Position numbers and translations under genes: made by a program. Shown in pieces: positions 49,133 through 61,567 of a stretch of DNA of 64,000 nucleotides. A model generated the notes under the pieces. The model had not been told where the DNA came from, did no database searches, and worked only from the letters and a program-made list of their open reading frames with translations. How positions within the stretch are numbered: the stretch's first letter is position 1; each line of letters begins with the position of its first letter. Source of the stretch: Spirochaetia bacterium (GTDB taxonomy: Bacteria; Spirochaetota; Spirochaetia; DSM-2461); assembly GCA_963666985.2 (NCBI GenBank), contig CAXXIA010000002.1, forward strand, positions 1,728,001-1,792,000, written 5' to 3'.

Positions 49133-49966
49133 TCACGAATTCGTATCATCCAACGGGGATCTGACTTGCTTCAAGATTTCATCAGTCATATGCGTATACA
49201 TCATTGTTGTTTTCAGGTTTGAATGGCCCAACTGGCTTTGAATAACCCGAACGTCTGTTCCTCGTTCCAATAGATGTGTGGCAAAAGAATGCCTTAATGT
49301 ATGACAGGAAGCTTTTTTTCTTATCCCTACGTGTCCTTTGGCCTTTTCGAAAGCGGCCTGTACTGATCTAATTTGATATCTTCGTCCGCTTCTGGTTGTA
49401 AAAAGCGGGTCCTTTCCGTTTCTTTCTCCGATGATTGAGGATAATTCAGGGATTAATGTATGTGGGAGAACGACATAACGATCCTTTGCTCCCTTTCCAC
49501 GCTTAACATGAATCCGTCCATATTCTAAATCAAGATCACCAATATTAAGAGCAACTAATTCACCGACCCGCAGACCTGATCCGTATAATAGTGCAAGCAT
49601 GAGCCGATGCTTCCTGTTGTTAACAGCGTCCAGTAGTTTTACAACTTCTGTTGGGGTTAAAACGGCCGGTAAGGATCTAGATCGCTTTCTTCGAAGAGAA
49701 AAAACTTCTAGCGGCATCCTTAAGTAATCATGATAAAAGAATTTAAGTGCAGCAAATGCCATTTCACGACTTGCCTCTTTATCTTCAAAAGACTCAAGAA
49801 AATACCGAACTTTTTCTTCTCTCCCTAAATTCCGTCGAGATATTGTAAACTCAAGATAACGGGACAACATTTGTGTATAAGCCTTAATTGTCCGCTCAGA
49901 ATAGCCCCTAATCACAAGTTCTCTTTTATAGTTGTTGATAAGTGATTCCTTGGATATGATCTTCAT
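49133..49966 (-). CDS. Tyrosine recombinase, putative cassette integrase (atypical: no IntI-specific insertion)
   Basis: GLRVGE, GKGAKDR, HTLRHSFATHLL, LGH, TMMYTH; N-terminal RGYSERTIKAY. Confidence 0.92.
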   Translation of the reverse strand: MKIISKESLINNYKRELVIRGYSERTIKAYTQMLSRYLEFTISRRNLGREEKVRYFLESFEDKEASREMAFAALKFFYHDYLRMPLEVFSLRRKRSRSLPAVLTPTEVVKLLDAVNNRKHRLMLALLYGSGLRVGELVALNIGDLDLEYGRIHVKRGKGAKDRYVVLPHTLIPELSSIIGERNGKDPLFTTRSGRRYQIRSVQAAFEKAKGHVGIRKKASCHTLRHSFATHLLERGTDVRVIQSQLGHSNLKTTMMYTHMTDEILKQVRSPLDDTNS

Positions 49967-55931: not shown

Positions 55932-56208
55932 GTTAAACAGCTGTTGATGCGCGTCGGCCGCTAAAGGTGTTTAGCGGCCTTGGGCCGAGCGATGGGTATT
56001 GGTTAAGTTTTATTATTTTTGAAGAAGAAGAGAAAATCAGATTGAATCGGCTCGGCCAAATTTCGCTTTGTCATGGCTCTTGCAGATGCGTTTCCGAAAG
56101 TGATGTGATACCATCAAAGGCGAACAATGAATTGCTGTAGAAGAGCAAGAGCGCATGCCAACCGGCTTCGCCGGCCGCGAAACTTCGCATACCAGCGGGC
56201 CGTTAAAG
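55932..56208 (+). repeat. attC-like site 5 (277 bp, type A with expanded second arm)
   Basis: GTTAAAC-AGCTG...CGCATACCAGCGGGCC-GTTAAAG. Confidence 0.88.
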
Positions 56209-57047
56209 GAAATTCGGACGACGGAATAAAAAAGGTCTCTTTTTTGAGGGTTTTTTTCTGTGGCAGCCTCATTCCCTTCATTTGAACAAGTAACAAAAAC
56301 AGAATCCCTTTGAGTGTTCAGATTTTTTTAACAGGCCTTCCTTCTCTTTGAACGAAACAGGTCGTTTTCATACGGCTTTCTCCTCACCCCCCTCGCCTTT
56401 GAGATCATCTTCAAGAAAGAAACCAAAAGCATCGGAATAAAACTCGCTTCGGGATCAGAAGCACTTAGTGATAAGGCGGTCGGTTCGGGAGAACTTGTGT
56501 CGTGAAGGTTTATGGTTTTTAACGATTATGGGAATCGCTCATGAGAAAATCCTTATCCGTTGATGGCTATCGCTTCGGGAAATGAGGCGCTTCCGGTTTG
56601 ATCGGTTCGCGAGAAAAGGGGTGGTAGCCTGAGAAGAATGAAGGGATGGAGATGAGAAGAATGGAGATTGTTTTCTCCGTAGTTTTGCCTTTGAGAATAA
56701 GGCTGAATGCTTTAAGAGAATACCGGTGTAGAAGGAGAAGACGAACATTCGGATTTACAGAATCCGTCCTGAGAGAAAGAGGTCGGGAAAGGCGAATTGC
56801 ATCGGATGAAGGCCTGAGTAAAGTGATGAGGCGATGAAAGGGAGAATAGGGGTCAGTACGAGAGAATGGATAGAAATTCCGTTAAATGAGTAAAAAGCGG
56901 AAGAGGGAAGTCTGTAAAAGGATGAATGAAGAAAAGATGAGAAGGAGAAGGGCAAGAAGAATCGAAACAAAGGGTCCGGCAAAACGGCGAGGAGGGGTGA
57001 GGAGAAGGAGAGGTCTTTATAGATGCGTCGTCCGAACTTCCTTTAAC
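56202..57047. other. Cassette 6: apparently non-coding cassette
   Basis: Ends are complementary over 21/22 nt; only unconvincing ORFs of 75 aa or less. Confidence 0.7.
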
Positions 57048-57248
57048 AGCTGTTGATGCGCTTCGGCCGCTAAAGGTGTTTAGCGGCCTGCGGGGCTTCG
57101 CCCAAATTTGCCTCTGTCATAGATTTTGCTTAAGTCTGTCGCTATGGTAAGATGAGTTGTAGTTAGCGGTTGATGTTGTGAAGATTCGCAAAATCTCCGC
57201 CAGTCGCTACGCGAACGGCAAACTTCGCATACCAGCGGGCCGTTATGT
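57041..57248 (+). repeat. attC-like site 6 (208 bp, type B)
   Basis: CTTTAAC-AGCTG...CGCATACCAGCGGGCC-GTTATGT. Confidence 0.9.
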
Positions 57249-58609: not shown

Positions 58610-58841
58610 GTATTATTGGAGGCATTTTGAAGAAATTATGGATTCTGTTTCTTTTTCCATTTCTTCTGGGATGTGTGACTCGTGCAGATGAAAAGTATAA
58701 AGGAACTATCTACGATCCTGGTATTGAGGAACCCATATCGTTGCATCCCTTTTACTTCTCACATGCACTTGCAGAGGCAATTTGGAATTCCCAGCTTTTG
58801 ATAGACACTGCTAAACTCAAAATGAGGAAGGAGTGTACATC

Positions 58842-59129
58842 ATGGGAAGTCCGCGATATTCGGACGAATTCAAGGCAGAAGCAGTCGGCCAGGTTGTTGA
58901 GCGGGGCTACTCCATCAAGGAAGTCTCTGAGCGTATAGGAGTCTCAACCCATAGCCTCTATAAGTGGCTGAAGGCCGATTCTCGAAATCCAAAAGCACCA
59001 GAATCGGCAAAAGCAAATAAGGAGCTTGAAGTCGAGAATGCCAGGCTGAAAGCAGAGCTGCGGCGGGTGCAGGAAGAGCGAGATATCTTAAAAAAAGCCG
59101 CGGCATACTTCGCGAGTCAGTCCGAGTAA
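58842..59129 (+). CDS. IS3-family transposase OrfA
   Basis: RYSDEFKAEAV..HTH..EERDILKKAAAYFA. Confidence 0.92.
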   Translation: MGSPRYSDEFKAEAVGQVVERGYSIKEVSERIGVSTHSLYKWLKADSRNPKAPESAKANKELEVENARLKAELRRVQEERDILKKAAAYFASQSE

Positions 59130-59167
59130 GATATGCCTTCATCAAAAACTACAGGGCTGAATTCAGA

Positions 59168-59986
59168 GTGAAGACTATGTGCCGGGTTCTCGATGTCAAT
59201 CGAAGCGGATTCTATGCATGGTTGAGAAAACCTCAATCAGAGAGAAAGATTGAAGACATTCGGTTGTTGAAGAAGATTCGCCACTTCTACGAAGAAAGCG
59301 ATCAGGTCTACGGAAGTCCACGAATCCATGAGGATTTGATGGAAGACGGAGAATCCTGCAGCGTCCATCGAGTAGCCAGAATCATGCGAGAGCATGGTAT
59401 CAGGGCGATGGTCGGCTTCAAGATGCGTCGATTCAAGTATGGAAAACCGTCCCAGGCTGCCCCGAACCATCTCCAGCAGGACTTTAATGTAGAAGAACCC
59501 GATACTGCGTGGACAACGGATATTACCTATATTCGAACTCATGAAGGTTGGCTGTATCTCGCAGTTGTCATGGATCTTTATTCCAGGAGAATCATCGGCT
59601 GGTCCATGCAGAACACGCTTCATCGTGATCTGGTTATCCAGGCCTTACTGACAGCTGTTTGGAAGAGACGCCCGAAAAACAAAGTCCTTATCCATTCCGA
59701 TCAGGGCGGCCAATTTGACAGCGGTGACTGGATTAGATTCTGTCGTGACAACGGACTGAAGAGAAGTATGAGCCGTCGTGGAAACTGCTGGGACAATGCA
59801 GCCATGGAATCATTCTTTGGTAGTTTGAAGAAGGAACGGATTCGCCGGAAGACATATCGAACAAGGGATGAAGCACGGTCTGATGTGTTCGATTATATTG
59901 AAGCATTTTACAACCGGAAGCGTCGCCACAAGCATCTTGGCGGGATCTCTCCGGTTGAATTTGAAAAGGGTTCTATTGCAAGCTAG
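59168..59986 (+). CDS. IS3-family transposase OrfB (DDE)
   Basis: YGSPRI, WTTDITYI, HSDQG, DNAAMESFF. Confidence 0.94.
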   Translation: MKTMCRVLDVNRSGFYAWLRKPQSERKIEDIRLLKKIRHFYEESDQVYGSPRIHEDLMEDGESCSVHRVARIMREHGIRAMVGFKMRRFKYGKPSQAAPNHLQQDFNVEEPDTAWTTDITYIRTHEGWLYLAVVMDLYSRRIIGWSMQNTLHRDLVIQALLTAVWKRRPKNKVLIHSDQGGQFDSGDWIRFCRDNGLKRSMSRRGNCWDNAAMESFFGSLKKERIRRKTYRTRDEARSDVFDYIEAFYNRKRRHKHLGGISPVEFEKGSIAS

Positions 59987-60335
59987 AGGTGTCTATAGAA
60001 GTCTGGGAATTCCAATTCATCTTAATTTCAATTTTCCAGATGCGTTTACTACGAAAGATATTGCTGAGTTGTATGGAAGACTCTACTATCACGCGCAGAA
60101 TGTTGAGGGTGTAACTATCCAAATAGATTCATACCCAGAAAAGCGAAGTCTTTTTATTAATATGAAACCAATTGTAATAGAAAACTATAGGCAATTTGGT
60201 AAAAGAGATAAGCTTGAATCACTTGGATACTTCTTTTGGTTCAATGTTGAGCAAGATCGCACACTAAAAGGAAAATATGTACCAGTGAACCACCCCGGCT
60301 TTACCGGAGGCACAATTACTTGAGAGGATTGTGTC

Positions 60336-60656
60336 ATGGGAAAGCAAACAAGGTACCCCAAGGAAGTCCGGGAACAATCTGTCCGGATGGTGTTTGAGAA
60401 GCAGAAGGACAGCGAATCTCAGTGGTCGGCGATTTGTTCAATATCCGCTAAGATCGGCTGTACACCCGAAACACTCCGGAAATGGGTTCGGCAGGCAGAA
60501 ATCGATGAAGGGCAGCGGGATGGTCTAACCAGTGAAGAGCGTAAGCGTCTTAAAGAGCTGGAAAAGGAGAATCGAGAACTTCGTACTGCCAACGAAATTC
60601 TTCGAAAGGCCTCAGCGTATTTTGCCCAGGCGGAGCTCGACCGCCGAAAGAACTGA
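60336..60656 (+). CDS. IS3-family transposase OrfA
   Basis: KIGCTPETLRKWVRQAE..ANEILRKASAYFAQAELDR. Confidence 0.93.
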   Translation: MGKQTRYPKEVREQSVRMVFEKQKDSESQWSAICSISAKIGCTPETLRKWVRQAEIDEGQRDGLTSEERKRLKELEKENRELRTANEILRKASAYFAQAELDRRKN

Positions 60657-61567
60657 TGGTCGGTTTTATCAATGAGAACCGGGAAGAATATGGAGTCGAG
60701 CCTATCTGCAAATCACTGCCGATTGCTCCGTCGACCTATCATCTACAAAAAGCAAGAGAAGCTGATCCTGAACTCGAACCTGATCGAACACGTCGAGACC
60801 GGTTTCTTAAAAATGAGATTCAGGAGATATGGGATGAGAACCGTAGAGTCTACGGCGCCAGGAAAGTCTGGAAGGTTCTTAGAAATGAGAAGCATCTCCA
60901 TGTAGCCAGGTGTACCGTCGAACGTCTTATGCGTTCTATGGGTCTCAGAGGCGTCATTCGGGGCAAGGGAACCAAGACCACCTTCCCGTCACCGAAAGAT
61001 GAAAGACCCGAGGATCTGGTTAACAGAGATTTCACAGCTTCCAAGCCGAATCGGCTTTGGGTTGCGGATTTCACCTACGTTTCCACCTGGCAGGGCTTCG
61101 TCTATGTTGCCTTCATCATTGATGTCTTCTCCCGGATGATCGTCGGTTGGCGAGCTAGCCGGTCGATGAAAACCGACTTTACTCTTGATGCGCTCAATCA
61201 GGCGCTTTGGGCCAGGGAAGTAGTCGACGGTCTGATTCATCACAGTGATCGTGGAAGGCAGTATCTTTCGTTTCGATATTCGGATCGATTGACAGAGGCC
61301 GGTATCGAGCCTTCGGTTGGGAGCAAAGGAGACTCGTACGATAACGCAATGGCTGAGACTATCAACGGTCTCTACAAAGCCGAAGTCATCCACCGGAGGA
61401 GCTCATGGCAGAGAATAGAACAGGTTGAATTGGAAACCCTGGACTGGGTGGACTGGTACAACAACCGCCGAATCATGGAGCCGCTTGGAGATATCCCCCC
61501 GGCGAAGTTTGAATCGATGTATTATGAACAGGAAGAATGTTCGGCAGTAGCTGCCGGACTCAACTAA
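60656..61567 (+). CDS. IS3-family transposase OrfB (DDE)
   Basis: YGARKVW, WVADFTYV, HHSDRG, DNAMAETING. Confidence 0.94.
   Translation: MVGFINENREEYGVEPICKSLPIAPSTYHLQKAREADPELEPDRTRRDRFLKNEIQEIWDENRRVYGARKVWKVLRNEKHLHVARCTVERLMRSMGLRGVIRGKGTKTTFPSPKDERPEDLVNRDFTASKPNRLWVADFTYVSTWQGFVYVAFIIDVFSRMIVGWRASRSMKTDFTLDALNQALWAREVVDGLIHHSDRGRQYLSFRYSDRLTEAGIEPSVGSKGDSYDNAMAETINGLYKAEVIHRRSSWQRIEQVELETLDWVDWYNNRRIMEPLGDIPPAKFESMYYEQEECSAVAAGLN

Follow-up and report, generated by a model that had tools for sequence, protein, structure and literature searches.

Gene-less cassettes are a known component of integron arrays, and the closest described counterparts of the cassette studied here come from Vibrio; our account of them follows the accessible portions of the sources cited. 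Between 6 and 49% of the cassettes in Vibrio arrays are gene-less, and the non-coding ones have no translated match, tend to be paralogous within an array, are without homologues outside vibrios and are conserved over their whole length, perhaps because they are homogenised by gene conversion; a selfish and a regulatory role have been put forward for them as alternatives (Boucher et al., 2006; PMC1382264). Blanco et al., 2024 (PMC11014356) reported that, of 30 gene-less Vibrio cassettes with lengths of 491-666 bp including attC, most had sense-strand promoter activity, which in-silico promoter calls failed to predict, and Tansirichaiya et al., 2019 (PMC6557892) found promoter activity in three of five ORF-less cassettes of the Treponema type. 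The latter paper also cites sRNA-Xcc1, a trans-acting sRNA of Xanthomonas campestris that is encoded by an integron cassette.

Here we describe a family of gene-less 846-nt cassettes which, as far as the accessible text of Boucher et al., 2006 (PMC1382264) goes, agrees with their description on each of the points just listed, albeit in another phylum and in a non-canonical array. The paralogous, non-coding kind of cassette is already known from Vibrio; what is new here is the eight-copy family itself and the conserved, family-specific inverted repeat that lies inside it. Positions refer to the window, by which we mean the whole 64,000-nucleotide stretch of DNA that was analysed, except that those prefixed C1 or C2 are genome coordinates. 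The features of the cassette are collected in Table 1.

Table 1. Features of the gene-less cassette and its flanks, in window coordinates
Feature	Position	Strand	Remarks
Upstream attC-type repeat	55936-56205	+	long 270-nt variant
Gene-less cassette body, copy c1 of 8	56202-57047	+	G/TT to AAC of next repeat
Terminal inverted repeat, 5' arm	56202-56224		22/23 match, usual array mismatch at position 11
Inner inverted repeat, 5' arm	56378-56397		pyrimidine-rich
Low-variation core among c1-c6	56399-56697		15 variable columns in ~300 nt
Candidate 31-codon ORF	56468-56563	+	GTG start, no Shine-Dalgarno; weak coding signal
Inner inverted repeat, 3' arm	56986-57006		purine-rich, Shine-Dalgarno-like; bulged A at 56993
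Terminal inverted repeat, 3' arm	57025-57047
Cassette's own downstream attC-type repeat	57045-57245	+	201 nt

The array and its eight-copy family

Our whole-genome survey delimited an array of 82 cassettes, separated by attC-type repeats, at C2:1779420-1935716 (about 157 kb). Within the window the cassettes run on the + strand from about 50.2 kb onward, and the repeats that separate them are 200-270 nt long with constant ends; compared with 60 relatives, this attC type is nearly restricted to its own genome. The 16S gene of the window scores 1570 bits on the bacterial model vs 1042 on the archaeal one. A tyrosine recombinase of 277 aa, related to integron integrases, is encoded at 49133-49966(-). 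It passes NF040815 (224.6 bits vs 220), and against TIGR02249 it scores 220.2 bits in two stretches, below the integron-integrase cut-off of 265, so that on this model the array lacks the adjacent integrase above the family cut-off by which a canonical integron is recognised. An extended -10-like box (TGnTAAGAT, with a weak -35) occurs in 35 of the 81 attC repeats about 97 nt before their 3' end, facing the next cassette, as at 57128-57159 in the window. At the threshold used, it was present in 33 of the 66 short repeats and 2 of the 15 long ones, and in only two of the seven attC repeats upstream of members of the 846-nt family. Complementarity of the cassette to the recombinase gene and the attI region was limited to chance 10-11-mers.

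The cassette at 56202-57047 opens with G/TTAAAGG and closes with ...CCTTTAAC, has attC-type repeats of the array on both sides and shares with the other cassettes the strand of its GTT junction, which bears out the original prediction of an 846-bp cassette with intact ends. No canonical attC was found nested inside it. Its 3' half is purine-rich, as had also been predicted (69.3% purine vs 50.1% in the 5' half), GAGAA is over-represented (14 observed vs 5.3 expected), and the first ~130 nt are rich in A/T tracts. The low-variation core of the closest copies contrasts with the 197 nt to its left, in which 34 columns vary.

Eight paralogous copies were found in the genome by BLAST and an nhmmer profile, all of them in the array and on the + strand, spread from about 6 to 156 kb from the array start. 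Five are intact (c1, which is the cassette of Table 1, and c2, c3, c4 and c6, with c3 and c4 adjacent), whereas in c5 the first ~22 nt are missing at an IS, c7 is interrupted by an IS21-type element (istA/istB), and c8 has nested IS copies ~25 nt from its start and a deletion of ~90 nt in the purine-rich part. Pairwise identities are 94.3-97.2% among c1-c6, 85.6-86.7% for c7 and 66.4-68.8% for c8; close copies differ by 1-nt indels. Since the neighbouring cassettes differ from copy to copy, the copies must have moved as single cassettes. They are also mosaics of one another: the four-gamete test failed at sites 56265, 56397, 56715 and 56880, and such incompatible partitions of the variable sites point to recombination or gene conversion between copies.

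Array families without IS-driven links have only two or three copies, at 98.8-100% identity. Just one further family is large, a gene-poor cassette of 243 nt with eight copies at 92-99% identity, and the gene-less families exceed the other repeat families of the array in both size and age. The copies of the 243-nt family lie outside the window, at C2:1797751-1797993 and at 1801980, 1832174, 1833905, 1896547, 1905294, 1905794 and 1914501. Seven of the eight precede a 262-nt attC variant (GATACGC...CGTATACC), and for the remaining copy, at 1832174, no matching attC end was detected downstream by motif search. This family has a local hairpin, GAGG-A-GG/CCCCTC with a bulged A, that resembles the inner part of the helix of the 846-nt family.

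An IS with a transposase of ~374-397 aa (N-terminus MPWKETNIM...) lies on the - strand, in constant orientation, ~24-27 nt behind the GTT of many unrelated cassettes. Its sites include C2:1877974 (in c8) and C2:1933553 (in c5), and about eight further cassettes, recognisable by TGAGCGA at the end of their first 32 nt, carry it too. This IS seems to target cassette 5' ends; its shared position in c5 and c8 was rejected as targeting of the 846-nt family, the same IS being found in so many unrelated cassettes. Elsewhere in the window, two IS3-type elements (HTH_Tnp_1 and rve ORFs) lie within one 3.5-kb cassette (58627-61567), and one of them contains an ALIL frameshift pseudoknot at 60614-60730 (Rfam, 100.6 bits).

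Outside its own genome the family had no relative in the sets searched. A blastn search of 60 relatives and 400 genomes of the phylum returned no true homologue, and the family HMM did not bear out its two weak matches (E ~1e-3, in genomes G011 and G052). A two-block pattern matched nothing in the genome and metagenome contig collections, and no homologues were found in plasmids or phages. A 17-mer of the 5' inner arm hit at least 119 and at least 110 loci in two contig collections; among the matches listed, nhmmer assigned all to chance. In the terms of Boucher et al., 2006, these are whole-length paralogues in the same array with no homologue outside the lineage in the searched sets. Two short environmental contigs are near-exact matches: one of 176 nt from a wetland run matches 56274-56434 with 4 differences, and one of 151 nt from a wastewater metagenome run matches 56490-56640 with 2. 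The family, or its host, is therefore present in other samples.

Terminal and inner inverted repeats

Nearly all of the 82 cassettes have at their two ends an inverted repeat of their own, ~15-18 nt long and beginning with GTT; position 11 is often an A/G mismatch, which on the bottom strand would be a G-T wobble. Within the array, these terminal arms can pair solely with each other and not within the hybrid attC repeats. The outer inverted repeat of the present cassette measures 42 nt, and its terminal arms, with 22 of 23 positions matching, are a little longer than usual. When the first 32 nt of the cassette are set against its last 32, 26 positions agree vs 16-23 in most of the 82. End-to-end pairing is generic to cassettes of the array; only the inner repeat is specific to the 846-nt family. 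A family of 1119-nt cassettes (three copies, at C2:1803515, 1897046 and 1898360), which has a HicB-like ORF on the - strand, has the same first 13 nt (GTTAAAGGAAATT) and matching last bases as the 846-nt family, and 'cassette-specific' end sequences are therefore sometimes not unique.

The original prediction of a pairing between segments about 600 nt apart proved correct: 56378-56390 and 56994-57006 are exactly complementary over 13 nt, and with one bulged A the helix extends to 20 pairs, ending at 56397 and 56986. When the cassette was shuffled 1000 times by each of three schemes and the terminal arms were disregarded, 0.3-0.5% of the shuffles contained an exact inverted repeat of at least 13 nt. 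Of the 74 tested cassettes of at least 300 nt, only copies of the 846-nt family have a 5'/3' inverted repeat of 13 nt, all others reaching 11 at most, and in the genome the arm sequences are unique to the family bar a few chance near-matches within the allowed mismatches. The arms have also changed less than the rest of the cassette: c7, conserved at 85.8% overall, keeps 41 of 41 arm positions (P=0.0018), and c8, at 59.6% overall, keeps 23 of the 26 that make up the 13-nt arms (P=0.0014). Being conserved above the cassette average, the inner repeat is under constraint.

Most pairs of the inner helix never vary, and none of the 20 shows a compensatory change. The one-sided changes comprise two wobbles on the + strand, two on the - strand and five mismatches, the last mostly in the inner 7 pairs of c8, a copy that retains only the outer 11-13 pairs. 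Because the wobbles are split evenly between the strands, a DNA fold and an RNA fold are indistinguishable from them. Inner and terminal arms are separated by 18 nt on the 3' side and by 153 nt on the 5' side, and this latter distance means that the two stems are not coaxial. In a limited literature search, no description of a conserved long-range inverted repeat in gene-less cassettes was found in the accessible text of the sources.

A third inverted repeat, 56268-56282/56637-56651, is lost in c7 and c8 and was dropped as chance. A mini-ORF of 7 codons (ATG...TAA) at 57023-57046(+) lies 9 nt behind a strong Shine-Dalgarno-like run (GGAGAAGGAGAGG), with its stop codon within the terminal TTTAAC of the cassette; c8 has lost this mini-ORF, and c1-c7 retain it. 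MITEs are non-autonomous transposons with terminal inverted repeats, and the cassette resembles them in that a 13-20-bp inverted repeat surrounds ~590 bp of non-coding DNA. We rejected this identity, as there is no target-site duplication at the arm borders and the arms occur only inside the 846-nt family.

Possible roles of the family

The absence of a convincing ORF, part of the original prediction, was upheld: the longest ORFs are of 75 and 69 aa on the - strand and 63 and 56 aa on the + strand, and none of at least 56 aa is intact in all eight copies. The cassette does contain ORFs of 168-225 bp, compared with the limit of 150 bp used by Boucher et al., 2006, and none of seven cassette ORFs was found in a collection of 15 billion proteins. 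It is scarcely credible that the family is a decayed protein gene, amplified once it had become a pseudogene. Some gene-less Vibrio cassettes are truncated genes, as far as the accessible text of Blanco et al., 2024 (PMC11014356) goes, and in c3 a 1-nt insertion extends a - strand frame to an ORF of 134 aa, but the pyrimidine-rich strand gives long ORFs by chance, and eight copies have been kept over up to 32% divergence. Furthermore, the outcome that the original prediction had named as grounds for its own rejection, a decayed gene, did not appear: six ORFs had no Pfam match at E <=0.01, six-frame translations with X at stops matched only the family itself in its own genome (local tblastn), and the 134-aa ORF had no relative of 73-235 aa among 5.8 billion clusters. 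Very improbable, too, is a 31-residue protein encoded by the candidate ORF within the low-variation core. This frame is intact in seven of the eight copies (c1-c7), in which first, second and third codon positions account for 2, 2 and 8 of the variable columns (binomial p=0.019, without correction for the testing of 15 ORFs), and by eye c8 retains the start and the frame over 26 codons with no indel and 14 of 26 residues identical. However, the differences between c1 and c8 number 6, 9 and 10 by codon position (by eye), with no third-position excess; the ORF lacks the upstream Shine-Dalgarno that is strong in the cassette genes here; its hydrophobic stretch covers only ~11 residues; it is not in the 15-billion-protein collection; and its intactness says little because it is located in a region with few changes.

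A transcript rather than a protein could be the product, and the original prediction had put forward a structured RNA, possibly a protein sponge, along with a promoter module. We regard as unlikely a large (~0.85-1 kb) sense-strand non-coding RNA that would arise from transcription of the array, have the terminal and inner helices as its closure, and work in trans, either as a regulator or, via its purine-rich, GAGAA-rich half, as a protein-binding platform. It is consistent with the conserved long-range helix, the strongly purine-rich sense strand and its GAGAA excess, the low-variation core, the placement of every copy on the cassette sense strand, the presence of csrA in the genome and the precedent of the cassette-borne sRNA-Xcc1, as cited in the accessible text of Tansirichaiya et al., 2019 (PMC6557892). 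Several results count against it. An Rfam search of the window and the seven loci with other copies, at gathering and E-value thresholds, gave nothing for any copy of the cassette (chance-level matches only, E at least 3.3; no family match at gathering score), the homologue searches found no relative outside the genome in the sets covered, and among the copies none of the 20 inner pairs, most of which are invariant, shows a compensatory change. Both minimum-energy folds of the whole cassette contain the terminal and inner helices, and the whole-cassette z-scores of -2.1 (+) and -3.1 (-) over 20 shuffles are low because of these two long helices, which form on either strand. The core is no better folded than its shuffles (z -0.93 on the + strand and +0.22 on the - strand, 200 shuffles), the local hairpins predicted for c1 are by eye not maintained in c7 (86%) or c8 (68%), and most GAGAA sites are not retained in c8. 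A richly structured RNA finds no support in these results. An exhaustive enumeration of stems yielded mainly low-complexity pairings. CsrB/RsmZ-type RNAs, which act as sponges for CsrA, are purine-rich with many GGA triplets, and the cassette resembles them in both respects and in that its host has csrA. The predicted abundance of GGA held as a count (24 in total, 16 in the 3' half) but not as an enrichment, ~16.8 being expected for the 3' half from its mononucleotide composition. A CsrA sponge is therefore without support, and we rejected it on motif frequency; unlike in such sponges, the GGA sites are also not consistently in hairpin loops (by eye) and are not kept in c8. The csrA gene follows a flagellin-like gene and fliW in a row at C1:1505943-1509098, and in this fliW-linked arrangement the antagonist of CsrA is the protein FliW. 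Hfq was not found in the genome, which is 93% complete. Nor is the element bracketed by a promoter or a terminator in consensus scans, and the array's promoter-like box is, as noted, present in only two of the seven attC repeats upstream of the family. The fuller claim, that the family as such is a cassette-borne RNA of ~0.85-1 kb with a conserved long-range helix, present in eight copies and acting in trans on the array or the cell, for example as a purine-rich protein-binding platform, seems to us decidedly unlikely. If true, this would make it the first case of an integron cassette carrying a large structured RNA. Such an RNA would exceed sRNA-Xcc1 in length roughly tenfold. On present evidence, nothing found shows that the cassette produces a structured RNA, and it does not represent a new kind of RNA.

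That the cassette instead supplies a promoter by which cassettes next to it, remote from the promoter of the array itself, are driven or silenced is doubtful to a similar degree. The activities recorded for most of 30 gene-less Vibrio cassettes and three of five Treponema-type ones (Blanco et al., 2024; Tansirichaiya et al., 2019) argue for this, as do the dispersal of the copies along the array and the A/T-tract-rich first ~130 nt. In our hands, however, a consensus scan found no sigma-70-like -35/-10 pair in the cassette at the tool's threshold, and a looser scan of both strands found no promoter-like site conserved among the copies. The predicted promoter module is thus without in-silico support, although such prediction is reported to be unreliable for cassettes of this type in the accessible text of PMC11014356. 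Moreover, 35 of the 81 attC repeats already present an extended -10-like box to the next cassette, about 100 bp would be enough for a promoter as against 846, and the conserved inverted repeat would be left unexplained.

The reading that we tentatively prefer, with a little under even confidence, is that the family consists of non-coding paralogous cassettes which persist because the recombinase of the array copies and keeps them, whether selfishly or in the service of the array, and that the constrained inner repeat helps by folding. Persistence would then come from copying and retention by the array's own recombinase and not from an encoded product. In a single-stranded cassette, the generic end-to-end stem would be accompanied by a second one made by the inner repeat; this second stem could form in the single-stranded DNA of cassette recombination and, equally, in a sense transcript. 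Probably the conserved inner repeat brings both ends of the cassette together by folding: with the second stem in place, a shorter loop would separate the two recombination points, and this may favour excision and re-insertion, and hence raise the copy number of the family. The copying-and-retention reading is supported by boundaries like those of the neighbouring cassettes, by eight copies on the same strand, by the lack of a conserved ORF, by the lack of a relative outside the genome in the sets searched and by the mosaic make-up of the copies; the presence of terminal and inner helices in both whole-cassette folds and the Vibrio precedent agree with it. Points against it are that the inner repeat is dispensable, since the other cassettes tested in the array have none; that the two stems are not coaxial; that the one-sided changes leave DNA and RNA folds indistinguishable; that c8 pairs only over the outer 11-13 positions; and that the low-variation core and the purine-rich, GAGAA-rich 3' half are left unexplained. 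Furthermore, a body of 846 bp exceeds the need of a purely selfish cassette.

Comparison with known gene-less cassettes

The comparisons that follow extend as far as the accessible text of the cited sources. With sRNA-Xcc1 the cassette shares the lack of an ORF; sRNA-Xcc1 yields a regulatory RNA and, unlike the candidate RNA here, is a small RNA with shown expression (PMC6557892). The promoter cassettes of Vibrionaceae (PMC11014356) and the ORF-less cassettes of Treponema (PMC6557892) resemble it in being gene-less and in belonging to long sedentary arrays, where distal cassettes need their own transcription signals. Unlike the cassettes of 491-666 bp including attC in PMC11014356, this one spans ~1045 bp with its attC and shows no promoter-like site in our scans.

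The closest likeness is to the non-coding cassettes of Vibrio superintegrons (PMC1382264). In both cases there is no conserved ORF, no translated match and no outside homologue, the paralogues lie in one array and are conserved over their whole length with signs of gene conversion, and selfish and regulatory roles are the candidates. The present family differs in its spirochaete host, its attC-type repeats of ~200-270 nt, its 277-aa recombinase below the integrase cut-off, its 846-bp body with chance ORFs of more than 150 bp, and its conserved long-range inverted repeat (PMC1382264 for the Vibrio side). The role of gene-less cassettes is only partly understood, and the conserved inner repeat offers a concrete handle on whether their multiplication is selfish or serves the array. 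In a phylum distant from Vibrio, two gene-less families, of 846 and 243 nt, rank near the top in copy number among the repeated cassettes of an array of 157 kb. That such families are numerous, and much more diverged than ordinary duplicated ones, argues that gene-less cassettes, far from being debris, regularly form part of big arrays and are long-lived there.
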